The position numbers and the translations under genes were made by a program. From Escherichia coli (GTDB lineage: Bacteria > Pseudomonadota > Gammaproteobacteria > Enterobacterales > Enterobacteriaceae), in NCBI RefSeq assembly GCF_003019035.1, contig NZ_CP027447.1: a stretch of DNA of 64,000 nucleotides; one strand, written 5' to 3'. This document shows positions 6,098 to 35,298 of this stretch, in pieces. Under the pieces are notes generated by a model that worked only from the letters and a program-made list of their open reading frames with translations, was not told where the DNA came from and did no database searches. Numbering within the stretch: position 1 is the first letter of the stretch; each line of letters begins with the position of its first letter.

Positions 6098-6114
6098 TTT
6101 TGTGGAGAAAGTTG

Positions 6115-6456: not shown

Positions 6457-6460
6457 TATT

Positions 6461-6486
6461 AGGGGGAATTACCCCCCTTTTTTTCT
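6461..6486 (+). terminator. Rho-independent terminator after the Q-like gene
   Basis: GGGGG-AATTA-CCCCC hairpin followed by a run of 8 T; overlaps the last codons of the convergent membrane-protein gene. Confidence 0.6.
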
Positions 6487-7930: not shown

Positions 7931-8049
7931 GTGTATTCCAGGACCGACTAAAGATAGCGAGAATGGGGACGCATAGTTTATAAAAATCCTAACGCGTACG
8001 CAAAAAGTATTATATCGTGTTAAGAGTGGTTACTTCGCCACACAACTTA

Positions 8050-8074
8050 AACCCGCCGCTGAGCGGTTTTTTTG
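8050..8074 (+). terminator. Rho-independent terminator (tR'-like) at the start of the late region
   Basis: GC-rich hairpin (CCGC-TGA-GCGG, extended by AAAC/GTTT) followed by 7 T; an AT-rich promoter-like stretch (TATTATAT) lies ~40 bp upstream. Confidence 0.5.
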
Positions 8075-8194
8075 TACCTGTAAACCTTGTGCAGTACAGT
8101 AAACACGCTGGTGGTCGTGAATACTGGCTTTTTATCTTGCTGGCTTTTTAGACAAGAGTTATTGGTATGTCATGTTAACCAGAAGGGAAAAGAC

Positions 8195-8398
8195 ATGCTA
8201 AAACAGCAAGATATGACAGAAACCGCCGCCGCAGTCCTTCATTTCTTACCTGCTGACAAGTGGGTAACGCCACGCATGATGACGAGAACTACCGGAGTAA
8301 GCGAAGCCCGGTGCCAGTTAATACTGACTCAGTTAGTTCTGGCGGGTCTGGCGAAGGATAACGGCGGGTACGGGAATAAATTCAGACGCTGCCAGTAA
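8195..8398 (+). CDS. Small hypothetical protein (possible winged-helix DNA-binding)
   Basis: 67 aa from ATG 8195 with SD AGAAGGGAAAAG; first gene after the tR'-like terminator. Confidence 0.4.
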   Translation: MLKQQDMTETAAAVLHFLPADKWVTPRMMTRTTGVSEARCQLILTQLVLAGLAKDNGGYGNKFRRCQ

Positions 8399-8548
8399 TG
8401 GCGGTTTCCTGCTGTGAAAATGGGCGGCTGGTGGGTGTTGGTAGCACCTGCCAGCCATTCGCTCATGCTTACTGGTCACAAGCGAACCACGGCCCACTGC
8501 TTTAGCGCAAAAGCAGAGTGAGCCTACCAGAGTTACGCTTACTGATCC

Positions 8549-9601
8549 ATGAAAAATACTGTAAAAATAAACAGTGTTGATTTAATCAACGCTGATTGCC
8601 TGCATTTTATTCAGTCCCTGCCTGATGATTCCATTGACCTGATTGTTACCGATCCGCCTTACTTCAAGGTGAAACCTAACGGTTGGGACAATCAGTGGAA
8701 AGGGGACGAAGATTACCTTAAGTGGCTGGACCACTGTCTGGCCCAGTTCTGGCGGGTGTTAAAACCTGCCGGAAGCCTTTACCTGTTCTGTGGGCATCGC
8801 CTGGCATCTGATATTGAGATCATGATGCGTGAACGTTTCAACGTGCTTAACCATATCATCTGGGCGAAGCCGTCCGGACGTTGGAATGGGTGTAATAAAG
8901 AAAGTCTGCGCGCATATTTTCCTGCCACAGAGCGCGTTCTGTTTGCTGAACATTACCAGGGGCCATATCGCGGCAAAAGTGACGGCTATGCGGCAAAAGA
9001 AAGGGAACTCAAACAGCACATAATGGCACCGCTGATATCGTATTTCAGGGATGCTCGTGCCGAACTGGGTATAACGGCAAAACAAATTGCCGAAGCCACA
9101 GGTAAGAAAAATATGGTTTCCCACTGGTTTGGTGCCAGTCAGTGGCAGTTGCCGAATGAGGCTGACTATCGGAAGTTACAGGCACTGTTTTCCCGTATAG
9201 CGGCAGAGAAGTTTCAGGAACAACAACTGGAACAACCACACCACCAGCTGGTGGCATCTTATGATTCACTGAATCGCAAATATTCTGAATTGCTGGATGA
9301 GTTTAAATCTCTCCGGCGCTATTTCTCCGTATCAGTCTCCGTGCCTTATACCGATGTCTGGACGCATAAGCCCGTTCAGTTCTACCCGGGTAAACATCCG
9401 TGCGAGAAACCGGCGGATATGCTCCGGCAAATAATCAATGCCAGTAGTCGACCTGGTGATCTGGTTGCTGATTTCTTTATGGGATCCGGTTCCACAATAA
9501 AAGCAGCAATGGCGCTGGGGCGTCGGGCGTTAGGTGTTGAACTTGAGTCAGAGCGGTTTAATCAGACGGTGAAAGAGGTAAGTGAACTGGTGGGGAAATA
9601 A
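8549..9601 (+). CDS. DNA methyltransferase (N6-adenine/N4-cytosine, beta-class)
   Basis: 350 aa; catalytic DPPY motif (IVTDPPYF) near the N-terminus and AdoMet-binding FxGxG (DFFMGSGST) near the C-terminus. Confidence 0.85.
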   Translation: MKNTVKINSVDLINADCLHFIQSLPDDSIDLIVTDPPYFKVKPNGWDNQWKGDEDYLKWLDHCLAQFWRVLKPAGSLYLFCGHRLASDIEIMMRERFNVLNHIIWAKPSGRWNGCNKESLRAYFPATERVLFAEHYQGPYRGKSDGYAAKERELKQHIMAPLISYFRDARAELGITAKQIAEATGKKNMVSHWFGASQWQLPNEADYRKLQALFSRIAAEKFQEQQLEQPHHQLVASYDSLNRKYSELLDEFKSLRRYFSVSVSVPYTDVWTHKPVQFYPGKHPCEKPADMLRQIINASSRPGDLVADFFMGSGSTIKAAMALGRRALGVELESERFNQTVKEVSELVGK

Positions 9602-9677
9602 TTCTGGTGGCCACGTTGCGTGGCCTTTTTATTTCCAACACAGCACCCGCAAATATCGCGAGGTGAGAGATGACGAA

Positions 9678-10004
9678 ATGCCTCATAACCCAAATACCTG
9701 GCTGGACTTGGTCCAGAGCTGGTGGCGTGGAGACACACCGCTGGGTGCAGTGATTATGTCGATCGTTATGGCTGGTTTGCGCATCGCCTATTTTGGCGGT
9801 GGTGGTGGCTGGAAGCGAAAAACGCTCGAGATTTTGCTATGTGGCGCTCTGACGCTGACCTTTGCATCCGCTCTTGAGTATGTCGGATGGCCTAAATCAC
9901 TATCTGTTGCCATTGGTGGTGGGGTGGGGCTGATCGGTGTCGATGCTATTCGTGGGGCTGCAATGCGAGTAATCGGTAACAAGTTTGGTGGCTCTAAGGA
10001 GTAA
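9678..10004 (+). CDS. Holin
   Basis: 108 aa; hydrophobic helices with a glycine-rich central segment and charged C-terminus; directly precedes the endolysin. Confidence 0.7.
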   Translation: MPHNPNTWLDLVQSWWRGDTPLGAVIMSIVMAGLRIAYFGGGGGWKRKTLEILLCGALTLTFASALEYVGWPKSLSVAIGGGVGLIGVDAIRGAAMRVIGNKFGGSKE

Positions 10005-10007
10005 TTT

Positions 10008-10484
10008 ATGCAGGTACTAAATTCCCAGCGTAAAGCTTTCCTTGATATGGTGGCTTGGTCAGAAGGAACGGATAACGGACGACAACCGACACGTAACCAC
10101 GGTTATGACGTTATTGTCGGTGGTGAACTCTTCACTGATTACTCCGATCACCCTCGCAAACTTGTCACGCTAAACCCGAAACTCAAGTCAACAGCCGCCG
10201 GACGTTACCAGCTTCTTTCACGCTGGTGGGATGCTTACCGTAAACAGCTTGGCCTGAAAGATTTTTCTCCAGAAAGCCAGGACGCTGTAGCTTTGCAGCA
10301 GATTAAAGAGCGTGGCGCTTTACCGATGATTGACCGTGGCAATATTCGTCAGGCAATCGACCGTTGCAGCAATATCTGGGCGTCATTACCTGGTGCAGGT
10401 TACGGTCAGTATGAACATAAAATCGGTGACCTGATTGCACGGTTTGAAGAGGCTGGTGGGGTGATAAATGAAGTTGAGCTATAA
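10008..10484 (+). CDS. Endolysin, lambda R-type lytic transglycosylase
   Basis: 158 aa, near-identical in pattern to lambda R (NSQRKAFLDMVAWSEGTDNGRQ ... WASLPGAGYGQ). Confidence 0.9.
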   Translation: MQVLNSQRKAFLDMVAWSEGTDNGRQPTRNHGYDVIVGGELFTDYSDHPRKLVTLNPKLKSTAAGRYQLLSRWWDAYRKQLGLKDFSPESQDAVALQQIKERGALPMIDRGNIRQAIDRCSNIWASLPGAGYGQYEHKIGDLIARFEEAGGVINEVEL

Positions 10485-10860
10485 GCTGGTTATCGCTGCT
10501 TTCTTCGTTACTGTCATTGGTTCTTTCATCTGGTCAGCCAACCACTACTACAGCAAATATCAGTACGAAAAGAAACGTGCTGATGAGGCTGAACGAAATG
10601 CTGGATCAGCAACAGCCATTACCAATAACGTCCTGCAATCACTGCAAATCGTCAATACAGTACTGGAGGCTAACCAGCGTGCAAAACAGCAGATCGCACT
10701 GGAGTCACAAAGAACCCAGGAAGATATCAAAATGGCCGTTGCGGATGATGATTGTGCTTCACGTCTTGTGCCTGCTGCCGCTGCTGAGCGGTTGCGGAAG
10801 TATGCGGACAGTTTACGTGAACACTCCGACGGTACCACTGCCAGCCAGCCTGACGGCTGA
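10468..10860 (+). CDS. Rz-like inner-membrane spanin
   Basis: 130 aa; N-terminal transmembrane helix then coiled-coil-like region; follows the endolysin. Confidence 0.65.
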   Translation: MKLSYKLVIAAFFVTVIGSFIWSANHYYSKYQYEKKRADEAERNAGSATAITNNVLQSLQIVNTVLEANQRAKQQIALESQRTQEDIKMAVADDDCASRLVPAAAAERLRKYADSLREHSDGTTASQPDG

Positions 10861-11014
10861 AACCCCTCAGCCTGATTTACCTGATCATTTTACGTGGGGC
10901 TCGAGCTTAGATCTGAATGCCGCCTTGTTGTCTGCATTGGCGCAGTGTAATACCGATAAAGCTGACATCAGAAGGATTGAAGTTGAGCGTGGTCACATCA
11001 TGCAAAAAAAATGA
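10745..11014 (+). CDS. Rz1-like outer-membrane lipoprotein spanin
   Basis: ~89 aa in the +1 frame of Rz; lipobox LLSGC after a signal peptide; Pro-rich mature region; extends past the Rz stop. Confidence 0.6.
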   Translation: MMIVLHVLCLLPLLSGCGSMRTVYVNTPTVPLPASLTAETPQPDLPDHFTWGSSLDLNAALLSALAQCNTDKADIRRIEVERGHIMQKK

Positions 11015-11106
11015 TGTTCACTTTATTTTGTTCCTTGATTTGATATGTGATGACCCAATAGATACAAAGCACCTGATTTGGGTGATTTTTTTGAAGGACT
11101 ATACAC

Positions 11107-11427
11107 ATGAAAGACGGCATTTATTTTGTTGTGTTCAGAAGCGGTCATAATGATGTTGGCAATGGCACGGTCGTTGTGAAGGATAATGCGGTTAATGGTG
11201 GTGATTTTGGGTTTACCTATCAGGGGCGTGTACAAGATGGGGTATTGAAACTTCATGTATCCCGCCATAACCCTTCAGCACAAAACGTTATTGCAGGCCT
11301 TAACGATTATGTGATGGATCTCTCTGTGAGAGATATTGGGGATGGTTATTACCTTGAAGGTGGAATTGCTGGTGTTCCTGGTGCGACTCTGTCTGTACAG
11401 GCGAAATTTATCGGCAATTTGATTTAA
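11107..11427 (+). CDS. Hypothetical phage protein
   Basis: 106 aa ORF after the lysis cassette, followed by a terminator. Confidence 0.4.
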   Translation: MKDGIYFVVFRSGHNDVGNGTVVVKDNAVNGGDFGFTYQGRVQDGVLKLHVSRHNPSAQNVIAGLNDYVMDLSVRDIGDGYYLEGGIAGVPGATLSVQAKFIGNLI

Positions 11428-11441
11428 ATCGATTCTCTCCT

Positions 11442-11472
11442 AAACCGCCCACTTTCCACGGGCGGTTTTTTG
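11442..11472 (+). terminator. Rho-independent terminator
   Basis: CCGCCC-n9-GGGCGG hairpin followed by TTTTTTG. Confidence 0.7.
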
Positions 11473-11522
11473 TTGCCATTACGATGGGTAGACCAGTAGT
11501 AATGATTGAAGGAGAAATTTAA

Positions 11523-11873
11523 ATGCCCCCACGAACCCCAAAAGCCTGCCGTGTTCGCGGCTGCCGCCATACCACCACTGACCCGTCAGGCTATTGCGAA
11601 AGCCACAAAAGCGAAGGCTGGAAGCAATACAAACCTGGACAATCCCGTCATCAGCGCGGCTACGGTTCGAAGTGGGACAGTATCCGCGCGCGTGTCCTGA
11701 AGCGTGACAAAGGCCTGTGTCAGTTATGTCTGCGTTCTGGTGTGGTGCGTGAGGCGAAAACTGTTGACCACATCATCCCTAAAGCGCATGGCGGCACTGA
11801 TGCTGACAGTAATCTGCAGAGTCTGTGCTGGCCGTGCCATAAGGCGAAGACGACCCGTGAACGGTTAAAGTGA
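11523..11873 (+). CDS. HNH endonuclease (terminase-associated)
   Basis: 116 aa; paired Cys and His motifs (CRVRGC...C ... DHIIPKAHGG ... CWPCH); sits directly upstream of the small terminase. Confidence 0.8.
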   Translation: MPPRTPKACRVRGCRHTTTDPSGYCESHKSEGWKQYKPGQSRHQRGYGSKWDSIRARVLKRDKGLCQLCLRSGVVREAKTVDHIIPKAHGGTDADSNLQSLCWPCHKAKTTRERLK

Positions 11874-11998
11874 TAATAATTCTCAACTGTCTGAGGGGAG
11901 GGGCGGGTCAAATCCCTGTGACCTGACGTCTTCCGGACTGCCCGCCCCATCGTTTTTTTATACCCGCGAAAAATGAAATTTAACCAGGAGTGCCGCAT

Positions 11999-12493
11999 AT
12001 GGCTGGAACGACGGGGCGTTCCGGGCGTCGCCCCAAGCCAACGGCGCGCAAGGCGCTGGCCGGAAATCCCGGCAAGCGAGCCCTGAACAAAGATGAACCT
12101 GTTTTTACGCCCATCAAAGGTGTTGAGCCACCGGAGTGGTTCGCTGAAGAAGATCTCCCTCTCGCCACGATCATGTGGCAACTGACAACCAAAGAACTCT
12201 GCGGTCAGGGCCTGCTGTGCGTGACTGACCTCGCGGTGCTTGAGCGGTGGTGCGTGGCCTACGAGTTCTGGCGGCGTGCCGTGAAAAATATTGCCAGACA
12301 GGGCAACACCATCACCGGTGCAATGGGTGGCATGGTCAAAAATCCGGAGCTGACCGCCAAGAAAGAACAGGAGTCCGAGATGAGCAGCACGGGGGCAATG
12401 CTCGGACTCGACCCCAGCATCCGCCAGCGTCTGATTGGCCTGGCGGGGCAGAAGAAAGCCACTAACCCGTTTCTGAAAATCATCGAATCATGA
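11999..12493 (+). CDS. Terminase small subunit
   Basis: ~165 aa from ATG 11999 (SD AGGAG); position before the large terminase. Confidence 0.75.
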
Positions 12494-14223
12494 GCCGGAA
12501 ATCTTACCCCAACGTAAATGCTGCCAATCAGTATGCCCGGGATGTCGTGCGCGGAAAGATTGTGGCCTGCCAGTTTGTGATTCAGGCCTGCCAGCGCCAT
12601 CTTGATGACCTGATGGCGGAAAAAAGTAAGTCGTTTCGTTACCGCTTCGACAAGGACCTGGCTGAACGGGCCGCGAAATTTATTCAGCTGTTGCCACACA
12701 CCAAGGGGGAGTGGGCATTCAAGAGGATGCCCATCACGCTGGAACCGTGGCAGCTCTTTGTGATCTGCTGTGCGTTTGGCTGGGTCAATAAAGGCTCCCG
12801 GCTGCGCCGCTTCAGGGAGGTGTATACCGAAATCCCCCGTAAGAACGGCAAATCGGCAATCTCTGCCGGTGTTGCCCTGTATTGTTTTGCCTGTGATAAC
12901 GAGTTTGGCGCGGAAGTGTATTCCGGTGCCACGACAGAGAAACAGGCGTGGGAAGTCTTTCGCCCGGCGCGACTGATGTGTAAACGCACACCCATGCTGA
13001 CGGAAGCGTTCGGGATTGAGGTTAACGCCTCAAACATGAACCGTCCGGAGGATGGCGCGCGGTTTGAACCGCTGATCGGTAACCCCGGTGATGGTTCATC
13101 ACCCCACTGTGCCGTGGTGGATGAATATCACGAGCACGCCACCGATGCGCTTTATACCACGATGCTTACCGGGATGGGCGCGCGACGTCAGCCACTGATG
13201 TGGGCCATTACTACTGCCGGGTACAACATTGAGGGGCCGTGCTACGACAAGCGGCGGGAAGTTATCGAGATGCTCAACGGGTCGGTACCCAACGATGAAC
13301 TGTTCGGGATCATCTATACCGTTGATGAAGGTGACGACTGGACCGACCCGCAGGTGCTGGAAAAAGCCAATCCAAATATTGGCGTGTCGGTTTATCGCGA
13401 ATTTTTGTTAAGTCAGCAGCAGCGTGCGAAAAATAACGCCCGTCTGGCAAACGTCTTTAAAACAAAACACCTCAATATCTGGGTGTCGGCGCGTTCGGCG
13501 TATTTCAACCTGGTGAGCTGGCAGAGCTGCGAGGATAAATCACTGACCCTTGAGCAGTTCGAGGGGCAGCTGTGCATTCTGGCCTTTGACCTGGCGCGTA
13601 AGCTGGATATGAACAGCATGGCGCGACTTTATACCCGCGAGATTGACGGTAAAACGCATTACTACAGTGTGGCCCCGCGTTTCTGGGTACCGTATGACAC
13701 GGTGTACAGCGTCGAGAAAAATGAAGATCGACGGACAGCCGAACGCTTTCAGAAATGGGTGGAAATGGGCGTTCTGACCGTTACCGATGGTGCGGAGGTG
13801 GATTATCGCTATATCCTCGAGGAGGCCAAAGCGGCGAACAAAATCAGCCCGGTCAGTGAGTCACCCATCGACCCCTTCGGGGCGACCGGGTTGTCACATG
13901 ACCTTGCTGATGAAGACCTGAATCCCGTCACTATCATTCAGAACTACACCAACATGTCCGACCCGATGAAAGAGCTGGAAGCGGCAATTGAATCGGGGCG
14001 CTTTCATCATGATGGCAATCCCATCATGACCTGGTGTATCGGCAACGTGGTCGGCAAAACCATTCCGGGTAACGATGATGTGGTGAAGCCCGTCAAAGAG
14101 CAGGCGGAAAACAAAATCGATGGTGCAGTTGCGCTGATTATGGCGGTTGGCAGAGCCATGCTGTACGAGAAAGGAGACACGTTGTCTGACCACATTGAGT
14201 CCTATGGGATCCGCTCGCTTTAA
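12490..14223 (+). CDS. Terminase large subunit
   Basis: 577 aa; ATPase-like N-terminus and nuclease-like C-terminus; ATGA overlap with the small subunit. Confidence 0.9.
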
Positions 14224-14234
14224 CTGAGGTAATT

Positions 14235-14417
14235 ATGATCATGCTGATTCTCGCGCCTCTGGTGGGCGTGCTGGGGGCGCTTTTGCTGGCGTATGGTGCC
14301 TGGCTGATTTATCCCCCGGCGGGGTTTGTTGTTGCCGGGGCGTTGTGCCTGTTCTGGTCGTGGCTGGTGGCGCGATATCTTGACCGTACACAGTCGTCTG
14401 TCGGCGGAGGTAAATAG
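14235..14417 (+). CDS. Small hydrophobic protein
   Basis: 60 aa with two hydrophobic helices, between terminase and portal. Confidence 0.3.
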
Positions 14418-15658
14418 TGTTCTTTTCGGGATTATTTCAACGAAAAAGTGACGCACCGATGACCACGCCAGCAGAGCTGGCGGAGGCTATCGGGTTGTCC
14501 TACGACACCTATACCGGAAAGCAGATCAGCAGCCAGCGGGCCATGCGACTGACGGCGGTTTTTTCCTGTGTCAGGGTGCTGGCGGAGTCGGTCGGGATGT
14601 TGCCCTGCAACCTGTATCACCTGAACGGCAGCCTGAAGCAGAGAGCCACTGGCGAACGTCTGCATAAGCTGATCTCCACGCATCCCAATGGCTATATGAC
14701 GCCGCAGGAGTTCTGGGAGCTGGTGGTCACCTGTCTGTGCCTGCGGGGAAACTTTTACGCCTACAAAGTGAAAGCATTTGGCGAAGTGGCTGAACTGCTG
14801 CCCGTCGATCCCGGCTGTGTGGTACCGAAGCTTAACAGTAGCTGGGAGCCGATCTATCAGGTCACATTCCCGGATGGCTCCACGGATGTACTGAGCCAGG
14901 AGGATATCTGGCATGTGCGCACGCTGACGCTGGACGGACTGGTGGGGCTGAATCCCATCGCCTATGCCCGCGAGGCAATATCGCTGGCAGCTGCGACCGA
15001 AGAGCACGGGGCCAGACTGTTCAGCAATGGCGCGGTGACGTCGGGTGTGTTGCGTACAGAGCAGACGCTGTCAGATCAGGCTTATGAGCGCCTGAAGAAA
15101 GATTTTGAGGAGCGTCACACCGGGCTTGGCAATGCTCACCGCCCGATGATCCTTGAGATGGGGCTGGACTGGAAGTCGATGGCGCTGAACGCCGAGGACA
15201 GCCAGTTCCTGGAAACCCGCAAGTTTCAGCTTGAAGAAATCTGTCGTCTGTTCCGGGTGCCGTTGCACATGGTGCAGAACACCGATCGCGCCACCTTCAA
15301 CAATATCGAAGAGCTGGGGCTGGGATTTATCAACTATTCACTGGTGCCGTATCTGACCCGCATCGAACAGCGGATCAACACCGGACTGGTACGAAAAAGT
15401 AAGCAGGGCGTTTATTACGCCAAATTTAACGCCGGGGCGTTACTGCGCGGGGATATGAAGTCCCGTTTTGAAGCCTACGCCACCGGGATCAACTGGGGAA
15501 TTTACTCTCCCAATGACTGCCGCGACCTGGAAGATATGAATCCGCGTCCCGGTGGTGATGTCTATCTCACACCGATGAACATGACCACGAAACCCTCCGA
15601 TGGCAGTAAAGCCGGTAAGCAGAAGGATAACGCCAATGCAGACGAAACAACGTCTTGA
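14417..15658 (+). CDS. Portal protein
   Basis: 413 aa after the terminase; start may be the internal Met at ~14459. Confidence 0.85.
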   Translation: MFFSGLFQRKSDAPMTTPAELAEAIGLSYDTYTGKQISSQRAMRLTAVFSCVRVLAESVGMLPCNLYHLNGSLKQRATGERLHKLISTHPNGYMTPQEFWELVVTCLCLRGNFYAYKVKAFGEVAELLPVDPGCVVPKLNSSWEPIYQVTFPDGSTDVLSQEDIWHVRTLTLDGLVGLNPIAYAREAISLAAATEEHGARLFSNGAVTSGVLRTEQTLSDQAYERLKKDFEERHTGLGNAHRPMILEMGLDWKSMALNAEDSQFLETRKFQLEEICRLFRVPLHMVQNTDRATFNNIEELGLGFINYSLVPYLTRIEQRINTGLVRKSKQGVYYAKFNAGALLRGDMKSRFEAYATGINWGIYSPNDCRDLEDMNPRPGGDVYLTPMNMTTKPSDGSKAGKQKDNANADETTS

Positions 15659-16286
15659 TGTACCGCTGAGTCTGAAATCTGTCAGTGACTCCGGTGAGTT
15701 TGAAGGGTATGGCTCCGTCTTTGGTGTAAAGGACAGCCACGATGATGTGGTGATGTCCGGGGCATTTGCTGCTTCCCTGCGGGCGTGGAGTGACAGAAAA
15801 GCGTTACCTGCGCTGCTCTGGCAGCACCGCATGGATGAACCCATCGGTGTTTACACCGAAATGAAGGAAGACGATGTCGGGCTTTACGTCAGGGGACGGT
15901 TGCTTATTGATGATGATCCCCTCGCAAAACGCGCACATGCACACATGAAGGCCGGTTCGTTAACCGGCCTTTCTATTGGGTACGTCCTGAAAGACTGGGA
16001 ATACGACCGGAGCAAAGAAGCCTTTCTGCTGAAAGAAATCGACCTCTGGGAAGTCAGCCTGGTGACGTTCCCGTCTAACGACGAGGCGCGGATCAGCGAC
16101 GTCAAGAACGCACTGGCCCGCGGGGAAATCCCCGAACAGAAAAAAATCGAAAGAGTCCTGCGTGATGTCGGACTCTCCCGTACCCAGGCCAAAGCATTCA
16201 TGGCCGGGGGCTATGGCGCACTGTCCCTGCGCGACGCTGAGGATGTGGGCTCTGCACTGAATGCACTGAAAAATCTGAACTTCTAA
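15636..16286 (+). CDS. Prohead maturation protease
   Basis: ~216 aa between portal and capsid genes; start uncertain (15600 or 15636). Confidence 0.75.
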   Translation: MQTKQRLDVPLSLKSVSDSGEFEGYGSVFGVKDSHDDVVMSGAFAASLRAWSDRKALPALLWQHRMDEPIGVYTEMKEDDVGLYVRGRLLIDDDPLAKRAHAHMKAGSLTGLSIGYVLKDWEYDRSKEAFLLKEIDLWEVSLVTFPSNDEARISDVKNALARGEIPEQKKIERVLRDVGLSRTQAKAFMAGGYGALSLRDAEDVGSALNALKNLNF

Positions 16287-16300
16287 TCAGGAGAAATACG

Positions 16301-17506
16301 ATGGCGGTTGATATTAAAGATGTCGAACAGGTCGCGCAGGAGCTGCAGCAGAAGTTTGACGACTTCAAAGCAAAGAACGACAAGCGCGTGGATGCGATTG
16401 AGCAGGAAAAAGGCAAGCTTGCCGGGCAGGTGGAAACCCTGAACGGGAAACTCAGCGAGCTGGAAAATCTCAAAAGCGACCTTGAAAAAGAGCTGCTTGA
16501 GCTGAAACGTCCGGCTGGTGGAGCGCAAAATAAACTGGCCACCGAGCATAAAGAGGCGTTTGTGGGCTTCCTGCGTAAAGGCCGTGAAGACGGTCTGCGC
16601 GATCTGGAGCGTAAGGCATTGCAGGTGGGTACCGATGAAGACGGTGGCTACGCCGTGCCGGAAGAACTGGATCGCAACATTCTTAACCTGCTGAAAGATG
16701 AAGTGGTGATGCGTCAGGAAGCCACGGTGATCACCGTTGGCGGTTCCGACTACAAAAAACTGGTGAATCTGGGCGGTACGGCTTCCGGATGGGTGGGGGA
16801 AACGGATACGCGATCCCAGACTGCCACCTCCAGACTGGAGCTGATTGAACCTCTCATGGGGGAAATCTACGGCAACCCGCAGGCTACCCAGAAAATGCTG
16901 GACGATGCCTTCTTCAACGTGGAGGCCTGGATCAACAGCGAGCTGGCAACCGAATTTGCCGAACAGGAAGAAATTGCCTTTACCTCAGGCGATGGCACCA
17001 AGAAGCCGAAAGGGTTCCTGGCGTATGAATCCACTGATGAAACCGACAAGGTCCGGGCGTTCGGCAAACTTCAGCATATTGTATCTGGCGAAGCGACCGC
17101 GGTGACCGCAGACGCCATTATCAAACTGATTTACACGCTGCGTAAGGCACACCGCACTGGCGCGAAGTTCATGATGAACAACAACAGCCTGTTTACCATC
17201 CGTCTGCTGAAAGACACCGAGGGTAACTATCTGTGGCGTCCGGGGCTGGAACTGGGGCAGCCGTCCTCTCTGGCGGGTTACGGTATCGCTGAAAACGAAC
17301 AGATGCCGGATATCGCCGCTGATGCGAAAGCCATTGCATTTGGTAACTTCAAACGGGGTTACACCATCGTTGACCGTATCGGTACCCGCATTCTTCGCGA
17401 TCCGTACACCAATAAACCGTTTGTCGGTTTTTATACCACCAAGCGCACCGGCGGCATGCTGGTCGATTCGCAGGCCATCAAACTGCTGAAGATTGCTGCG
17501 GCGTAA
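16301..17506 (+). CDS. Major capsid protein (HK97 fold family)
   Basis: 401 aa; N-terminal coiled-coil scaffold-like delta region followed by capsid core; canonical position. Confidence 0.9.
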   Translation: MAVDIKDVEQVAQELQQKFDDFKAKNDKRVDAIEQEKGKLAGQVETLNGKLSELENLKSDLEKELLELKRPAGGAQNKLATEHKEAFVGFLRKGREDGLRDLERKALQVGTDEDGGYAVPEELDRNILNLLKDEVVMRQEATVITVGGSDYKKLVNLGGTASGWVGETDTRSQTATSRLELIEPLMGEIYGNPQATQKMLDDAFFNVEAWINSELATEFAEQEEIAFTSGDGTKKPKGFLAYESTDETDKVRAFGKLQHIVSGEATAVTADAIIKLIYTLRKAHRTGAKFMMNNNSLFTIRLLKDTEGNYLWRPGLELGQPSSLAGYGIAENEQMPDIAADAKAIAFGNFKRGYTIVDRIGTRILRDPYTNKPFVGFYTTKRTGGMLVDSQAIKLLKIAAA

Positions 17507-17512
17507 TCACTC

Positions 17513-17534
17513 AGGGGCGCGGAACCGCGCCCCC
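17513..17534 (+). terminator. GC-rich stem-loop after the capsid gene (possible attenuator)
   Basis: GGGGCGC-GGAACC-GCGCCCC immediately after the capsid stop; no strong T-run. Confidence 0.35.
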
Positions 17535-17555
17535 TGTTCTGACGGGTGAAGAATC

Positions 17556-17756
17556 ATGATCCTGAAACAAGATCTGAAATGGTCACCGGACGGTATGCGT
17601 GTTGAGGTCATTCGGGCCGGTGAGTATGACGACGGGGCGCTTCCTGCCCGGGTGCAGGAGATTGCACTTCAGGCCGGGTTAGCAGAGCGCGGAACCAGTG
17701 CAAAAAGCAGTAAAGCGACAAAAGAGAAAAAAGCCACGACCAGTAAAGAGGGCTGA
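17556..17756 (+). CDS. Small hypothetical head-module protein
   Basis: 66 aa ORF between capsid and connector genes. Confidence 0.3.
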   Translation: MILKQDLKWSPDGMRVEVIRAGEYDDGALPARVQEIALQAGLAERGTSAKSSKATKEKKATTSKEG

Positions 17757-17758
17757 GT

Positions 17759-18082
17759 ATGCTTCTGACAATGGAAGAGATTAAAGCCCAACTCCGGCTG
17801 GATGAGGATTTCGATGCTGATGACCGTCATCTGCAACTGCTGGCCTGTGCGGCGCAAAAGCGGACGGAAACGTATCTGAACCGGAAGCTCTATGCTCCGG
17901 ATGAAACCATTCCGGACAGCGATCCGGACGGGCTGCACCTGCCGGATGATATTCGTCTGGGGATGCTGATGCTTATCAGCCATTTTTACGAAAATCGCTC
18001 GTCGGTTACGGAAGTGGAGAAACTCGACATGCCGCAGAGTTTTGGCTGGCTTGTCGGCCCGTACAGGTACTTTCCGCAATGA
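17759..18082 (+). CDS. Head-tail connector / DNA-packaging protein (gp6-like)
   Basis: 107 aa, canonical position after the capsid gene. Confidence 0.55.
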   Translation: MLLTMEEIKAQLRLDEDFDADDRHLQLLACAAQKRTETYLNRKLYAPDETIPDSDPDGLHLPDDIRLGMLMLISHFYENRSSVTEVEKLDMPQSFGWLVGPYRYFPQ

Positions 18083-18489
18083 AAATTCGTCAGGCGCAGA
18101 CCAGCGCAACCTACATTCTGCCGGACCCCGGTGAACTGAATAAACGCGTCCTGATCCGCCTGCGGGTGGATATGCCCGCGGATAACTTTGGCGTGGAGCC
18201 TCAATACCCGGTTACGTTCCGGACATGGGCGAAGGTTATCCAGACCAGTGCCACCACCTGGCAGGAAACCGCGCAGACCGGGGACGCCATCACCCATTAC
18301 ATCACCATTCGTTACCGCCGGGGGATCACCGCTGATTATGAGGTGGTCTGCGGTGACAGTGTGTACCGGGTGAAACGTCAGCGCGATCTGAACGGGGCGC
18401 GGCGCTTTCTGCTGCTGGAGTGTACGGAGCTGGGCGAATGTAGGCAGAGTCACGGAGGCAACAATGACGACTTCCTTTTTGCACGTTGA
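18079..18489 (+). CDS. Head closure / head-tail adaptor protein
   Basis: 136 aa, overlapping gene chain in the head-tail joining module. Confidence 0.5.
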   Translation: MKIRQAQTSATYILPDPGELNKRVLIRLRVDMPADNFGVEPQYPVTFRTWAKVIQTSATTWQETAQTGDAITHYITIRYRRGITADYEVVCGDSVYRVKRQRDLNGARRFLLLECTELGECRQSHGGNNDDFLFAR

Positions 18490-29512: not shown

Positions 29513-29953
29513 ATGAATTACATATATTCCGCGACTACAAACTCTTTCTATCCGCTGGAGATGAAAGAGGATTACACTCAAGCTGACTCATGGCCAGATG
29601 ATGCTGTTGAAGTTGATGAGCAAGTGTATATTGCGTTTTCCGGATTACCGCCGAAAGGAAAAATCCGTATCGCTGGAGAAAATGGTTTTCCTGCATGGTC
29701 TGAAATTCCACCGCCAACACATGAGGAACAGATTGCTGCAGCCGAACAGGAAAAGCAGCAACTGATTAATCAGGCCAACGATTATATGAACAGTAAACAA
29801 TGGCCTGGTAAAGCGGCTATTGGTCGTCTGAAAGGTGAGGAACTGGCGCAATATAATTTGTGGCTGGATTATCTGGACGCACTGGAACTGGTCGATACTT
29901 CCGGTGCGCCAGATATTGAATGGCCTACGCCTCCGGCAGTTCAGGCCAGATGA
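29513..29953 (+). CDS. Tail fibre assembly protein (Tfa)
   Basis: 146 aa; C-terminal ELVDTSGAPDIEWPTPP resembles the conserved Tfa C-terminus. Confidence 0.75.
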   Translation: MNYIYSATTNSFYPLEMKEDYTQADSWPDDAVEVDEQVYIAFSGLPPKGKIRIAGENGFPAWSEIPPPTHEEQIAAAEQEKQQLINQANDYMNSKQWPGKAAIGRLKGEELAQYNLWLDYLDALELVDTSGAPDIEWPTPPAVQAR

Positions 29954-30514
29954 CATCCGGCGCGGTGCTGGTATCTGTTGCCGTCACCGCGTCAATGTAA
30001 TCCAGCACGGCGTTTAGTCGGGTGGTTTCTGTTTGCGTCAGCTTCCGTCCGGCCTGCAATTTCAGTTGAATAAGACTAATGGACGCCATTGCAGCATTAA
30101 TCAGCGACTGGCGCTGTGTTTCTGCCGCTTCTACTGCAGCACCGTGCTGTGCCTCAGTATCTGTCACCCATTTTTCCCATCCATTTATCGTATGGCGTTA
30201 ACGGTGAAAGCGTGACATAACCGTCTTTGATGGCACCGATATAATCCACTGTAACGGCAGCGCCATTTTCGGTTGAGTAAACAGTCTCATGGCGATGGTC
30301 TTCTTCATGGTGCCATCCTTCCCGTAAATACTGCCACTTTCCCCGAAATGTTTTCGCCCGGGTCAATATAAGTGGAACAAGCGGGCATACTTACACCAGT
30401 ATTAATATATTCATCAGACCAACCCGTATATTCATACGTTACTGTATCATAATAAAAACAACGCATATCACCCGGTACTGTAGCCAGCCCATTTTCATCA
30501 AAAACAGGTTTCAT
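29925..30514 (-). pseudogene. Alternative tail fibre assembly gene (tfa') in the invertible segment, disrupted by two frameshifts
   Basis: Three overlapping minus-strand frames (30514..30305, 30366..30154, 30167..29925) carry the N-terminal (FDENG), middle (EDHRHETVY...YDKWMG) and C-terminal (TDTSTAPDVIWPELP) parts of a Tfa-like protein. Confidence 0.55.
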
Positions 30515-30722
30515 TATTTAGCCCTCACCAGAAAGTTAAATGCGATGTTACGTGGCCTGACGGCAATAAAATTCACACCATCACCCACTGAATTACTGGT
30601 GTAATGGTATCGAGAGAAACCCGGCTCGTGTGCTGATATTCCATCGTGATTAGCAATCGAATGGCCGGAGCCCTCTGGATAATTACCTCCAAATTGCGAT
30701 AAAGATGTTGCTGCCTGCCAGC

Positions 30723-30958
30723 TTAATAATGCTCGCCACTATCCACCCCGCACCCATCATCCCAGATACGAATGAAATCACCCCGTGCGTCAGGTAATAC
30801 CAGCGACGGAAACACTTTCGCCAGCACAGGGTAATCAGTGGCAGAAAATTTCGCTCCGTTGAACTTCAAAAACACCATACCGGACCAGCTGTTGATTACG
30901 GTATTTGGCATTGCAGCGGAGGGCCAGAAGAACGGAACTCCAATAGCCGGAGCACCTT
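30723..30958 (-). CDS. Alternative tail-fibre variable C-terminal segment (Sv'), possibly truncated
   Basis: Minus-strand frame whose N-terminus crosses the right crossover site with the same LGLGE junction residues as the plus-strand fibre gene; ends ~200 nt before tfa'. Confidence 0.45.
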
Positions 30959-30968
30959 CTCCCAAACC
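30949..30968. repeat. Invertase crossover site, right (inverted copy)
   Basis: CTTCTCCCAAACCAACGTTT, inverted repeat of the left site; ~70 bp upstream of pin. Confidence 0.7.
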
Positions 30969-31036
30969 AACGTTTATGAAAATGCAGAAATAACGAGCAA
31001 ATGGCATCATTCCTGCTTTTGTCAGGGAGATCTACC

Positions 31037-31591
31037 ATGCTTATTGGCTATGTACGTGTGTCAACAAATGACCAGAACACAGATCTACAACGTAATGCGC
31101 TGAACTGTGCAGGATGCGAGCTGATTTTTGAAGACAAGATAAGCGGTACAAAGTCCGAAAGGCCGGGACTGAAAAAACTGCTCAGGACATTATCGGCAGG
31201 TGACACTCTGGTTGTCTGGAAGCTGGATCGGCTAGGGCGTAGTATGCGGCATCTGGTCATTCTGGTTGAGGAGTTGCGCGAACGTGGCGTTAATTTTCGC
31301 AGCCTGACGGATGCTATTGATACCAGCACACCGATGGGGCGTTTTTTCTTTCATGTGATGGGTGCCCTGGCTGAAATGGAACGAGAACTGATTGTTGAAC
31401 GAACAAAAGCTGGACTGGAAGCTGCTCGCGCACAGGGACGAATTGGTGGACGTCGTCCCAAACTTACACCAGAACAATGGGCGCAGGCCGGGCGATTAAT
31501 TGCATCAGGCGTTCCTCGCCAGAAGGTGGCGATCATCTATGATGTTGGTATATCGACACTGTATAAGAAGTTTCCGGTCGGAGATAAATGA
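31037..31591 (+). CDS. pin: Site-specific DNA invertase Pin (serine recombinase, Hin/Gin/Pin family)
   Basis: ~184 aa from MLIGYVRVSTNDQ; near-identical in pattern to e14 Pin (catalytic Ser in YVRVST; C-terminal HTH). Confidence 0.9.
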   Translation: MLIGYVRVSTNDQNTDLQRNALNCAGCELIFEDKISGTKSERPGLKKLLRTLSAGDTLVVWKLDRLGRSMRHLVILVEELRERGVNFRSLTDAIDTSTPMGRFFFHVMGALAEMERELIVERTKAGLEAARAQGRIGGRRPKLTPEQWAQAGRLIASGVPRQKVAIIYDVGISTLYKKFPVGDK

Positions 31592-31629
31592 AACCGTAGC
31601 ACGTCGTATGCAAGATCGTGCTGCGGTTT
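31591..31629. repeat. Hairpin repeat copy A (AAACCGTAGCACG-n13-CGTGCTGCGGTTT)
   Basis: 13-bp inverted repeat with one mismatch, directly after the pin stop; core shared with copies at 32609..32720 and 37170..37270. Confidence 0.6.
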
Positions 31630-31648
31630 ATGCTTATCACTTAAAGAC

Positions 31649-32518
<870 letters not shown>

Positions 32519-32608
32519 CTAATCCTTTGAATTTACATAGTAAAAAAGATACTTTTCCTCATAGTGTGAGCTAATTTTATGTTTCGTTTGATGATCGGAC
32601 CGGTCTCA

Positions 32609-32720
32609 AAAACCGCAGGCACGTTGTATGCAAGAACGTGCTGTGGCTGGCTGGTGAACTTCCAATAGTGCGAATATTGAATGATTTCTATCTGTTATAG
32701 ATTTTACCGTATTTCGGCAT
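32609..32720. repeat. Repeat copy B (~110 bp) of a dispersed element
   Basis: Shares the core CCGCAGGCACGTTGTATGCAAGAACGTGCTG and the downstream GGCTGGTGAACTTCCAATAGTGCGAATATTGAATGATTTC with copy C (~70% identity by eye). Confidence 0.55.
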
Positions 32721-32981
32721 GAATGAAACTGAATATCCTCCCACCGATTCTCCATGACTTTACGCCACTGTCTCTAGGGCTGCTATGTGCCAGAGGCGGA
32801 CGTTGTTAAAATAGAAAATATCCCAACCTTGTATGAGTCGTGCAATAATTTCGAACTTTATACAAAGCTTTGGTTGTAAAGGTGTATAACCACAAGTGAC
32901 ATTAATCACATTTGTAAAGGCAAAATGCAACAAACTGAATTAGTTAATTGCGTAAATTTGAAGTTATGTTAAGGTGGTGAT

Positions 32982-33114
32982 GGTTTATGGGCAGATTTTG
33001 GGTCGCGTTTCGCGATCAGTGAAAAAAATGTCCGATAGGATTGCCTTTCAGGATCTCATGTTCCTCGCATTTCTTAAGGTTCTTGTCAAGTTTGCGTAAG
33101 AGTGCCCATAAACC
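32982..33114 (+). ncRNA. Candidate retron msr/msd non-coding RNA flanked by inverted repeats a1/a2
   Basis: 12-bp perfect inverted repeats GGTTTATGGGCA (32982..32993) and TGCCCATAAACC (33103..33114) bracket 109 nt; a G follows a1; small hairpin TCGCG-TTT-CGCGA at 33003..33015; ends 20 bp before the RT start. Confidence 0.4.
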
Positions 33115-33133
33115 CTTTTAGAGGCGATCTAAA

Positions 33134-34969
33134 GTGAAACGACTACAATCATTAAAAGAAGCAAAAACAAAACCAGACTTGGCTAAGCTATTAGGAATCA
33201 AACCTTCAGCGTTAACATACTGCCTATATGTATTAAAACCTGAAAATCAATACACACAGTTTAAGATACCAAAAAAAAATGGCGGCGAACGGATAATAAG
33301 TGCACCTAACGGAATATTAAAGACGATACAGTCATCCTTATCAAGACTGCTTCTAGATTGCTTAGACGAAATAGTTTGCATTAAGTTTCCAGACTCAGAG
33401 TTAGCAAGGCAGAAAGCAAAAAACTCAAAAATATTAAAGTTAAAATGTTCCAACTCAGAAATCAAACAACCCTCACTGTCTCATGGATTTGAAAGAAAGC
33501 GTTCAATTATTACAAATGCAATGATGCACTTGGGGAAAAAATATGTTTTTAATATAGACTTGGATAATTTTTTCGGCAGTTTTAACTTTGGTAGAGTCCG
33601 AGGTTTTTTCATAAAAAATAGAAACTTTGCACTCGATCCGGAAATCGCAACTGTAATTGCTAAAATTGCGTGCTACAACAATGAACTACCCCAAGGCAGC
33701 CCATGCTCCCCAGTAATCACTAATCTAATCACTCACTCGTTAGACATTAAACTGGCAGCGATTGCATCAAGAAACTCATCCACTTTTACAAGATATGCTG
33801 ATGATATTACATTCTCTACGAGGAAGGGGGAGTTTCCTTCTGCTATAGCAAAAAATCAAAATGGTAAATATATCGTTAGTAAGAAAATTAGGGGCGAGAT
33901 AACTCGCTCAGGTTTTATAATTAATGATGGGAAGACAAGAAATCAGTATAAAGACTCGAGGCAAGATGTAACAGGCTTAGTGGTTAATAAAAAGCCAAAC
34001 ACGAAAAAAGAATATTGGAGGCTTGTGCGTGCGCAATGTGACCATTTATTTAAACATGGTGAGTTCTTAGAGGTGATTGACGGCAAGGAAATAAAGGGGA
34101 ATGTTAATACCCTTGCAGGCAAACTTAACTTCATAGACCAAGTTGACCACTATAATAGATTGCGTCAAGGCGAAAAATTAAATCCAAAATATCACTTAAA
34201 AAAAGATGCCAATAAAAATGGCCATGCCAAAAAAAGGCGTTACTTACATAGTTCTAGAGAAAAAACGTTTAGTGAGTTTCTCTTCTATCGTTTATTTTAT
34301 GGCAATGAATTACCAACAATTCTTACGGAAGGTAAAACTGACAATATTTATCTGAAGGCAGCAATACATAAGTTAGCCTCATCATTCCCTAATTTGGCGG
34401 TCGCTGAAAGTCCAGGGCTCTCTTATAAGCCACGGACTAAATTTGTTAACTACAATGAGCGGACAAAATATTTACTTGAACTTTATGGTGGTGCTGATTA
34501 TTTAAAGGATTTTGTTATTCATTATAAACAACACTTTAATCGTTATAAGGCTCCCAAACCATCTAATCCAGTAATTATACTTGTTGATAATGATAGCGGA
34601 CCAAAAGATCTGATTAATTACGTTAGTAAAGTTGATAATATTGGTATTTTCCCCACAGGTGTTCCAGATATCCGCGCCTCTGAGTTTGTACATATTTTTT
34701 GTAATCTTTATTTAGTGCTTACCCCTCAAGTTAAGGGATATACAGGAACTGATATAGAGCATTTTTTTAAAGATGCAGATCGACTTAGACCACATAAAGG
34801 TAAGTTTTTCAATACAGTCTCTAAGCGTGATCATGATAATGATTTGAGCAAGGAATCTTTCGCAACTCATATTGTTCATGCCCACAAGCATGAAATTGAT
34901 TTTAGTGGATTTACAAGCCTGTTAGAACGGTTAGTAAAAGTCATAAATCACTTTGACACTGTTAAGTAA
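33134..34969 (+). CDS. Retron-type reverse transcriptase fused to a C-terminal Toprim-like domain
   Basis: 611 aa (GTG start). RT motifs: IPKKNGGER, NAMMH (retron NAxxH), FNIDLDNFF (A), LPQGSPCSPVITNL (B), YADD (C), VTGLVVN (retron VTG); core resembles retron Ec86 RT as recalled. C-terminus carries acidic motifs ILTEGKTD and IILVDND. Confidence 0.8.
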   Translation: MKRLQSLKEAKTKPDLAKLLGIKPSALTYCLYVLKPENQYTQFKIPKKNGGERIISAPNGILKTIQSSLSRLLLDCLDEIVCIKFPDSELARQKAKNSKILKLKCSNSEIKQPSLSHGFERKRSIITNAMMHLGKKYVFNIDLDNFFGSFNFGRVRGFFIKNRNFALDPEIATVIAKIACYNNELPQGSPCSPVITNLITHSLDIKLAAIASRNSSTFTRYADDITFSTRKGEFPSAIAKNQNGKYIVSKKIRGEITRSGFIINDGKTRNQYKDSRQDVTGLVVNKKPNTKKEYWRLVRAQCDHLFKHGEFLEVIDGKEIKGNVNTLAGKLNFIDQVDHYNRLRQGEKLNPKYHLKKDANKNGHAKKRRYLHSSREKTFSEFLFYRLFYGNELPTILTEGKTDNIYLKAAIHKLASSFPNLAVAESPGLSYKPRTKFVNYNERTKYLLELYGGADYLKDFVIHYKQHFNRYKAPKPSNPVIILVDNDSGPKDLINYVSKVDNIGIFPTGVPDIRASEFVHIFCNLYLVLTPQVKGYTGTDIEHFFKDADRLRPHKGKFFNTVSKRDHDNDLSKESFATHIVHAHKHEIDFSGFTSLLERLVKVINHFDTVK

Positions 34970-35298
34970 TATTATGATGCGCACTGATTATTCCTTATTC
35001 AGCTAAAATTTCTACTGTAGTCCCAACTTCCGTTCCTCGCTCATAACAGACATTCACTACAGTTATGGTAGAAGGTATGCATGCTGGGTGGGGAAAGTAT
35101 GAAGGAAAAGAAGACTGCTGCGCCGTTTGTTGTCACATTTATCTTCATTGGCTATGCAAGTCGTAATACAAGGTGGGACAAAACTGAGACACATAAGGCC
35201 TCGCAATGACTTGCAAGGCTTTACATGTTTTGATGTGGTGGGACGTGTGAGCGCAGTGTTGATGGGGTAATGCTTTGAATTAGAAGCGGATTCTTATA

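Follow-up and report, generated by a model that had tools for sequence, protein, structure and literature searches.

HK97-type head and Mu-type contractile tail combined in the complete virion gene set of a probable SfV-family prophage of Escherichia coli

Positions 11523–31591 of the window, by which we mean the whole 64,000-nucleotide stretch analysed here, hold a complete set of particle-building genes in which a head of HK97 type is combined with a contractile tail of Mu type. With high confidence, we read this region as the late operon, encoding the virion, of a temperate myovirus of the SfV family whose prophage occupies the thrW tRNA site in a chromosome of E. coli type. The region is a single co-linear block on the + strand in which start and stop codons of neighbouring genes overlap throughout, and every class of gene named in the original prediction was found where it had been placed. 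Gene content, gene order, family membership, near-identity to characterised phages and an attR were all observed directly. The block opens with packaging and head genes, as follows.

11523–11873 (+): HNH endonuclease, last late gene before cos, an HK97-style packaging accessory (Pfam HNH, E 1.6e-16)
11931–11932 (no strand): putative cos junction, joining the two ends of the linear SfV genome
11990–12493 (+): terminase small subunit TerS, P27 family (Pfam Terminase_4, E 5e-20; TIGR01558)
12490–14223 (+): terminase large subunit TerL (Pfam TerL_ATPase and TerL_nuclease)
14235–14417 (+): small YmfR-like membrane protein (100% identical to e14 ymfR; phrog_502)
14417–15658 (+): portal, HK97 family (Pfam Phage_portal, E 6e-108; TIGR01537)
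15600–16286 (+): prohead serine protease, S78, HK97 family (Pfam, E 1.2e-31; TIGR01543); the annotated start in a relative corresponds to 15636
16301–17506 (+): major capsid protein, HK97 family (Pfam Phage_capsid, residues 115–398, E 9e-79; TIGR01554), with an N-terminal extension of about 114 aa before the capsid domain
17556–17756 (+): 66-aa protein after the capsid gene (phrog_1020, unknown function; 100% identical to SfII_07)

The order HNH, cos, TerS, TerL, portal, protease, capsid, gp6 and gp7, with no scaffold gene, is shared with HK97, and the Pfam and NCBIfam families are the same, at identities of 26–36%. TerL is 26% identical to HK97 gp2 across 537 aa and the capsid protein 26% identical to that of HK97 (both by tblastn), the portal 32% identical to gp3 and the protease 36% identical to gp4; the HNH protein is 37% identical to its HK97 counterpart. 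Curated NCBIfam models scored far above their cut-offs for major_cap_HK97 (382 bits versus 27.5), portal_HK97 (260 bits versus 112) and proheadase_HK97 (158 versus 59). HK97 differs in that its gp1 has no Pfam match, whereas TerS here is of the P27 family, and in that its tail is lambda-like rather than contractile. In a three-sequence alignment, the HK97 cross-link residues K169, N356 and E363 had no counterpart in the capsid protein, and "HK97-type" therefore denotes family and gene order, with no implication of chainmail chemistry. Since SfV 36666–37074 corresponds to window 11523–11931 and SfV 1–2211 to window 11932–14142, the cos position taken from this relative would fall at 11931/11932.

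Downstream of the capsid, the two halves of the virion meet in a short neck region.

17759–18082 (+): head-tail adaptor (Pfam Phage_connect_1, the family also of HK97 gp6)
18079–18489 (+): head closure protein (Pfam Phage_HCP, the family also of HK97 gp7)
18464–18970 (+): neck/tail-completion protein (phrog_879)
18967–19527 (+): tail terminator (Pfam Phage_tail_terminator, E 2.8e-25; phrog_209)

The neck protein had no Pfam match and no significant BLASTP similarity to Mu gp36 or HK97 gp10, and the terminator showed no detectable kinship to Mu gp37 (PF08873, phrog_490); for neither was similarity to HK97 or Mu detected. Since gp6/gp7-type connectors, the terminator and a neck protein specific to this family link head and tail, the evolutionary joint lies in 18464–19536. 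From there the tail genes run to the fibre.

19536–19706 (+): DUF2635 protein, Mu gp38 homologue, the first clearly Mu-type gene (Pfam DUF2635, E 1.2e-15)
19690–21186 (+): tail sheath, Mu L type (three Pfam sheath domains; 36% identity to Mu gpL across 500 aa, E 1e-83, tblastn)
21186–21542 (+): tail tube, Mu M family (PF10618, E 2.4e-33; phrog_185; both are also families of Mu gpM)
21542–21960 (+): tail assembly chaperone with a putative -1 frameshift extension (Pfam Phage_TAC_7)
21953–23788 (+): tape measure protein (Pfam PhageMin_Tail; 99% identical to SfV and SfII)
23807–25177 (+): Mu N-like tail/DNA circularisation protein (Pfam DNA_circ_N, E 7e-34, Mu gp43 family; 26% identical to Mu gp43)
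25174–26253 (+): baseplate hub, Mu P type (Pfam GpP-like first, second and fourth domains; 35% identical to Mu gp44, E 1e-53)
26253–26801 (+): baseplate spike, Mu gp45, P2 V analogue (Pfam Phage_Mu_Gp45; 27% identical to Mu gp45)
26798–27226 (+): baseplate wedge, Mu gp46 (Pfam GP46, E 1.5e-32; 42% identical to Mu gp46)
27213–28271 (+): Baseplate J-like protein, Mu gp47 (Pfam Baseplate_J, E 1.2e-51; 30% identical to Mu gp47)
28262–28846 (+): baseplate wedge, Mu gp48/YmfQ (Pfam Phage_Mu_Gp48; 30% identical to Mu gp48)

These genes follow Mu in the order gp38, L, M, chaperone, tape measure, N, P, gp45–48, invertible fibre (the S/U region of Mu) and invertase (gin). The tail protein families are those of Mu, yet identity is only 26–42%, and for the tube the pairwise BLASTP against Mu gpM was not significant. 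The window has no counterpart of the Mu head (Portal_Mu, gpT), of its neck (gp36, gp37) or of its transposition genes, nor does it have Mu-type regulation. The chaperone zero frame ends at 21811; direct reading of the sequence placed a slippery T_TTT_TTC at 21793–21799 and the end of the extension at 21960. Frameshifting at this site would yield in silico products of 89 and 139 aa, with the extension stopping over the tape measure start.

A protein-level comparison with e14, Mu and HK97 thus supports the mosaic reading of head and tail in the original prediction, in which an HK97-type head and packaging set was joined to a contractile tail "of the Mu/P2 type." The family assignments and tblastn matches to HK97 agree with the first half of that description. 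For the second half, co-linearity with Mu upholds the Mu part, and the P2 part fails: P2 gave no tblastn match to the window at E 1e-3, and only the generic sheath, chaperone and Baseplate_J families are common to both. A P2-type tail was rejected, as tube, hub, N, spike, wedge and gp48 all belong to Mu families.

The module ends in a fibre region with the invertible segment and Pin invertase that had been anticipated.

28850–29491 (+): tail fibre, expressed orientation (Pfam Gp53-like_C; phrog_1396)
29134–30975 (no strand): invertible fibre segment, 1.84 kb, with inverted crossover sites at 29134–29158 and 30951–30975
29513–29953 (+): tail fibre assembly protein for the expressed fibre (Pfam Caudo_TAP, E 2e-38)
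29925–30514 (−): alternative tail fibre assembly gene, tfaE-like (ORF fragments 29925–30167 and 30305–30514)
30515–30975 (−): alternative fibre C-terminal coding part, stfE-like (59% identical to e14 stfE)
31001–31591 (+): Pin-type serine DNA invertase (Pfam Resolvase, E 1e-51, and HTH_7; 93% identical to e14 PinE, 78% to Mu Gin); in relatives the start is annotated at the equivalent of 31037

The fibre, 60% identical to e14 StfP, has a constant N-terminal part of about 100 aa and a variable C-terminus within the invertible segment, with a crossover site inside the gene. The crossover sites are present as 25-nt arms with 88% complementarity, and in silico inversion joins the constant N-terminus to the alternative C-terminus in frame. 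In a relative, L001, the resulting fibre has 248 aa; the version in the window stops at 178 aa, since a 1-nt deletion at 30735 ends the stfE-like part early. The tfaE-like gene, intact in L001 at 197 aa, is broken by four further 1-nt deletions (30178, 30180, 30318 and 30320). The silent arm has five private 1-nt deletions in all and, provided that the sequence is free of error here, one fibre state of the two would not function.

Upstream of the module lie genes for lambdoid early and late control, in line with the lambdoid early regulation of the original prediction, and beyond it lies the right end of the prophage.

234–908 (−): S24 cI-type repressor
999–1199: Cro-like protein
2139–3080: O-like replication gene
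6100–6456: Q antiterminator (E 2.5e-45)
35174–35361 (+): attR, containing a copy of the thrW (tRNA-Thr) 3′ end, the right end of the prophage, outside 11523–31591

The attR is well preserved, at 96% identity to the SfV attP region 20467–20654; no complete tRNA gene was found in the window. The slot after pin carries PD-T4-3 and an Ec67-type retron as cargo.

The closest relatives are isolated phages. In one-piece DNA comparisons the module was 97.9% identical to SfII (86% of the span), 97.7% to SfI and 97.3% to vB_EcoM-689R6. SfI, SfII, SfIV and SfV are myoviruses by electron microscopy that package by cos and integrate at thrW, and SfIV has HK97-family head proteins and a contractile tail visible by electron microscopy (PMC3851460). 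SfII and SfI, together with SfIV and vB_EcoM-689R6/720R4, are co-linear with the window from cos to the fibre N-terminus at 97–98% DNA identity, and share its portal, protease and capsid allele, lambdoid early genes and thrW attachment site. All 22 structural proteins from HNH to gp48 are full length and 93–100% identical to SfII, with the protease and capsid at 100%, the portal at 99% and TerS at 98% (as also to SfV). This group differs in lacking Pin and in carrying gtr O-antigen modification genes after a non-invertible fibre, where the window has an e14-type invertible segment and Pin followed by its cargo. SfV has the same architecture, with tail proteins 98–100% identical, an HNH protein (orf53) 94% identical and, in its own record, annotated similarity to Mu gp38, L, N, P and gp45–48. 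Its portal, protease and capsid represent another, divergent allele of the HK97 family (27%, no hit and 25%, respectively), its Q is different, and it has neither Pin nor an invertible segment.

The view of this element as a full-length relative of e14 is likewise well founded. e14 aligns in five co-linear blocks, four at 92–98% DNA identity (covering cI/cro/ymfL/ymfM, the TerL C-terminus, ymfR, the portal N-terminus, the gp47 C-terminus, ymfQ and pinE) and a fifth, with the tail fibre assembly genes, at 87%; for the fibre proteins of e14 the identity is about 60%. The only gaps are two internal deletions, equivalent to window 2373–13086 and 14825–27483, and these account for the e14 fusion pseudogenes oweE/aaaE and beeE/jayE: the C-terminal 378 aa of TerL are 99% identical to aaaE, the N-terminal 139 aa of the portal are the counterpart of beeE, and the C-terminal part of the gp47-like protein is that of jayE (92% over 281 aa). 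YmfQ is 98% identical to the gp48-like wedge. In other respects e14 differs, sitting in icd with a different integrase site and carrying mcrA in the cargo slot.

The word "intact," also applied to this element, holds for the virion module only. A prophage grounded like e14, with complete-looking virion genes but with excision, replication or infectious particles blocked by damage to the fibre switch or to sequence beyond the module, is an unlikely alternative. It would fit the frameshifted alternative fibre and chaperone, and the location of int, xis and attL to the left of the window (about 5 kb by comparison with SfV, window position 1 mapping to SfV 25453). The flank has also been rearranged, because the stretch after attR is replaced relative to L001, in which attR is followed by a LysR (yagP-like) fragment and then the pao operon, where the window has a different 382 bp (35399–35780). 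Against this, compared with SfII or SfV no structural, lysis or regulatory gene in the window is shortened, both the expressed fibre and its chaperone are intact, matching those of one relative exactly, and attR is well conserved.

A recent recombinant private to this strain, and hence a new phage type, is very improbable. Although no deposited phage record covers as much as 80% of the stretch from fibre to attR, and the best E. coli genome match to 28000–37000 covers 82%, this novelty is limited to cargo and flank; fibre, pin and cargo are 98.9% identical in E. coli 2018-05-5CC, within a block spanning 23821–35398, and the HK97/Mu joint and the whole virion module recur at 97–99% identity in many phages and genomes, which contradicts a private origin for the module. 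Still less credible is an adjoining of two unrelated remnants, one a cluster of HK97-like head genes and the other a Mu-like tail cluster or tailocin, that do not form a single functional module: the neck genes at 18464–19527 do match neither parent lineage, but the reading is refuted by co-linearity with the isolated phages SfII, SfI, SfIV and SfV, whose genomes consist of this uninterrupted arrangement and are bounded by cos ends mapping to 11931/11932. Retention of the joint region (17700–20200, at least 80% coverage) in 1040 of 5426 complete E. coli genomes also counts against it.

For the SfV-family prophage favoured here, we propose that Q drives a single rightward late transcript spanning the lysis, packaging, head, tail and fibre genes. 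HNH, acting with TerS and TerL, would cut concatemers at cos and package the DNA into a prohead composed of the portal, S78 protease and capsid protein of the HK97 family, a set that includes no separate scaffold gene. The contractile tail would be assembled apart, from the Mu gp38–gp48 homologues, and then joined to the head through the connectors, neck protein and terminator to form particles. Inversion of the 1.84-kb segment by Pin would swap the receptor-binding C-terminal part of the fibre together with its assembly chaperone. The mosaic itself is not new, being that of the SfV/SfI/SfII/SfIV family, which is very common in E. coli and Shigella and has already been described.

Window 11523-31591 forms one rightward block in the ORF map, its reading frames tightly packed and many of them overlapping, with a GC content of 52-58% versus 35-39% in the flanking cargo. 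The original prediction that the portal, protease, capsid, terminase, and HNH genes are of the HK97 type was borne out by Pfam, NCBIfam, gene order, and comparison with the HK97 proteins. Pfam assignments in the first part of the block are HNH, P27-type TerS, TerL, portal, S78 protease, Phage_capsid, a gp6-type connector, and head completion. Three products pass the NCBIfam HK97 models by wide margins, namely the portal (TIGR01537, 260 bits; cut-off, 112), the prohead protease (TIGR01543, 158 bits; cut-off, 59), and the major capsid protein (TIGR01554, 382 bits; cut-off, 27.5), and the same three share their Pfam families with HK97 gp3, gp4, and gp5. The portal and capsid proteins of Mu, in contrast, fall into Portal_Mu and Mu-like_gpT. 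Direct identity between the HK97 and window head and packaging proteins is 26-36%, and the HK97 gene order is kept, with HNH just ahead of cos, the succession TerS-TerL-portal-protease-capsid, and no separate scaffold gene. The capsid Pfam domain begins only at residue 115 of 401, leaving an N-terminal extension, and the protease gene abuts the capsid gene. In a MAFFT alignment of three sequences, HK97 gp5 residues K169, N356, and E363 are all paired with a gap or a different residue; at 23% identity, this alignment is too weak to exclude the cross-link triad.

The second part of the block encodes a contractile tail, which had been described as Mu/P2 type; the Mu half of that description holds and the P2 half does not. 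Its Pfam families run from DUF2635 (Mu gp38 family), sheath, tube, chaperone, and tape measure to DNA_circ_N (Mu N), a GpP-like hub, Mu_Gp45, GP46, Baseplate_J, and Mu_Gp48. A homology search for Mu-likeness found the tail genes to be Mu-like: homologues of Mu gp38, L, M, gp41, gp42, N, P, and gp45-48 are co-linear in the window in exactly the Mu order, and L, N, P, and gp45-48 are 26-42% identical to their window counterparts by tblastn (E values of 1e-13 to 1e-83). The tube was matched to Mu gpM by profile only (PF10618 and phrog_185). The chaperone gene contains a T_TTT_TTC heptamer (21793-21799) from which the -1 frame runs on to 21960, over the start of the tape measure gene, so that products of 89 and 139 amino acids would be predicted. 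In some relatives, an extra hypothetical gene separates the tape measure gene from the Mu N-like gene (15258-15788 in L001, the locus of the close relative E. coli 2018-05-5CC, and 6786-7274 in L009, the locus of a further relative); the corresponding gap in the window (23788-23807) holds no extra gene, and none is present in SfII or SfV either.

A P2-type tail was rejected. P2 tail proteins gave no tblastn match to the window at an E value of 1e-3, and the families of the tube, hub, U/N, spike, wedge, and I/gp48 proteins differ, the P2 proteins belonging to PF04985, PF06995, PF05954, PF04717, PF04965, and PF09684, none of which is matched by a window protein. Since what P2 has in common with the window is limited to the generic families of sheath, TAC_7, and Baseplate_J, and since its gene order differs as well, the tail is of Mu type rather than P2 type.

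At the junction of the two parts, genes are clearly of HK97 type up to 18489 and clearly of Mu type from 19536 on, with only two genes in between:

18464-19527, neck/tail-completion protein and tail terminator

Neither HK97 nor Mu kin of these two proteins was found by BLASTP, Pfam, or PHROG searches; the Mu neck proteins gp36 and gp37 gave no significant BLASTP match to the window and belong to different Pfam and PHROG families. A Mu or HK97 origin of the pair is thus without support from these three sources. Both proteins are conserved within the SfV family (the Shigella myoviruses SfV, SfI, SfII, and SfIV), and the joint region is present at a coverage of at least 80% in 1040 of 5426 complete E. 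coli genomes, or about a fifth.

A mosaic of HK97 head and Mu tail under lambdoid control is the architecture by which the SfV family is defined, and this family has already been sequenced and described. By megablast, the virion module is found in one piece in SfII (97.9% identity over 86% of the span), SfI (97.7%), and vB_EcoM-689R6 (97.3%); SfIV and SfV match it in several pieces. All 22 SfII proteins from HNH to gp48 are 93-100% identical to those of the window, where all are full length. The window portal, protease, and capsid represent the SfI/SfII/SfIV allele, from which that of SfV diverges, an allelic difference already described (PMC3851460), and the SfV record itself annotates similarities to Mu gene by gene. 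Electron micrographs of the relatives show an isometric head and contractile tail (PMC3851460). Family members package by cos, integrate at thrW, and are under lambdoid cI/Cro/Q control (PMC3851460). The lambdoid early regulation that had been proposed was likewise evident upstream in the window, where a cI-type S24 repressor, Cro, an O-like replication gene, RusA, KilA-N, DUF968, Q, a DNA methylase, and lysis genes are encoded.

Comparison with SfV also places the landmarks of the prophage. The two termini of the linear SfV genome fall on neighbouring bases of the window, 11931/11932, which is the predicted position of cos; the HNH gene (11523-11873) and TerS (from 11990) lie on either side, such that HNH adjoins both cos and the terminase genes. 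The attP region of SfV has its counterpart at 35174-35361 (96% identity), a stretch that contains the 3' end of a tRNA-Thr (thrW) copy and delimits the prophage on the right. Position 1 of the window is equivalent to SfV 25453, and hence int, xis, and attL are located beyond the left edge of the window. Nothing in the window corresponds to SfV 17022-20466, which includes the gtr genes.

The prophage had further been taken for an intact, full-length relative of e14, the cryptic prophage of E. coli K-12. This stands for the part visible in the window, the left end lying outside it. Five co-linear blocks of e14 can be aligned to the window, four of them at 92-98% DNA identity:

88-2372, cI region as far as the beginning of the replication gene
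13087-14824, TerL C-terminus, ymfR, and portal N-terminus
27484-29161, gp47 C-terminus, ymfQ, and fibre N-terminus
29776-30204, tail fibre assembly genes (87% DNA identity)
30955-31592, crossover site and pin

From this alignment, e14 is a prophage of the present type minus two internal deletions, corresponding to window 2373-13086 and 14825-27483, which account for its fusion pseudogenes oweE/aaaE and beeE/jayE. Unlike the window prophage, e14 is attached at icd and has mcrA as cargo.

An invertible fibre segment with Pin, also part of the original prediction, was supported by crossover sites, an in-frame alternative fibre, and the domains of the invertase. Inverted 25-nt crossover sites lie inside the fibre gene (29134-29158) and some 60 nt ahead of the invertase gene (30951-30975). 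The invertase carries a resolvase catalytic domain (E value of 1e-51) and HTH_7 (E value of 5.5e-13) by Pfam and is 93% identical to PinE of e14 and 78% identical to Gin of Mu. Flipping the segment in silico joins the constant 100 N-terminal fibre residues in frame to a different C-terminus. In L001, the same operation yields a fibre of 248 aa, with an intact assembly protein of 197 aa encoded after it; in the window, the alternative fibre is truncated by a deletion. The silent arm (the unexpressed part of the segment) carries five 1-nt deletions, all in C-runs, at 30178, 30180, 30318, 30320, and 30735, and these break both the alternative fibre and its assembly gene. No other coding indel occurs in the 11.6 kb aligned to L001 at 98.9% identity, and all 25 of the E. 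coli genomes listed have 706 nt where the window has 701, none carrying the deletions. Because the arm holds only 16 of the 96 C-runs of the 11.6-kb stretch, this clustering is not random. The deletions represent either an assembly artefact at a region of mixed orientation or a private inactivation.

The slot between the fibre/pin region and attR (window 31592-35361) looks like a hot spot for cargo or defence genes. Three features were located in it:

31649-32473, reverse strand, PD-T4-3 GIY-YIG protein (PADLOC, E value of 2.7e-140)
32982-33114, candidate msr-msd of 133 nt, bracketed by a perfect 12-nt inverted repeat and situated shortly before the RT gene
33134-34969, forward strand, reverse transcriptase of an Ec67-family, type I-C RT-Toprim retron (NCBIfam, 742 bits)

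The fold z-score of the candidate msr-msd is only -1.9. No retron RNA family matched in Rfam at the gathering threshold over the whole window, and a search by E value on 32400-33200 gave no match to such an RNA save a chance-level hit to CssrB.

The slot was also inspected in other genomes. It holds gtrABV in SfV; gtr, an acyltransferase, and an IS in SfII; mcrA in e14; a cytosine methyltransferase and a type II restriction enzyme in E. coli ECE313; an FRG-domain gene in E. coli WP4-S18-ESBL-09; and an ImmA/HTH/BRO-N set in E. coli LR-62-2. The E. coli genomes searched probably do not include that of the window itself, the best match to window 28000-37000 covering 82% of it. Beyond attR, L001 carries a LysR (yagP-like) fragment and paoDCBA (27404-32925). 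A different 382 bp replaces this stretch in the window (35399-35780), with yagU (35942-36556) almost directly after; yagU is likewise near-adjacent in ECE313, WP4-S18-ESBL-09, and LR-62-2, whose annotation has a short integrase fragment at that place. Rfam IS009 (RF02111) scores 191.7 bits on the forward strand downstream of yagU (36562-36763).

Directly after Q, a low-GC (34.5%) gene pair interrupts the late region:

6469-7017, reverse strand, 182-aa protein
7004-7930, reverse strand, 308-aa protein

The 182-aa protein had no match in Pfam, NCBIfam, PADLOC, or PHROGs; the 308-aa protein had none in Pfam, NCBIfam, PADLOC, or PDB and matched only PHROG families of unknown function, phrog_2802 first. 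The pair (6469-7930) is a moron of unknown function, and a comparable pair, also on the reverse strand, occupies this position after Q in SfII.

In sum, the gene content originally observed was confirmed, and its interpretation was supported with the tail assigned to Mu rather than to Mu/P2. By analogy with its relatives, this prophage would be expected to form particles, to frameshift in the chaperone gene, to invert its fibre segment, and to depend on Q for transcription. As a discovery the mosaic matters little, being an ordinary and known phage architecture. We see the chances as evenly balanced that the pin-attR stretch of SfV/e14-type prophages is a systematic exchange slot for defence and lysogenic conversion, with the present prophage a previously undescribed family member; if true, that member combines an SfII-type virion and an e14-type Pin switch with a PD-T4-3/Ec67-type (I-C) retron pair. 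In practical terms, the prophage provides a clean, undeleted template showing exactly which two deletions gave rise to e14, and it pins down the prophage end together with a cargo slot that holds two known anti-phage systems.
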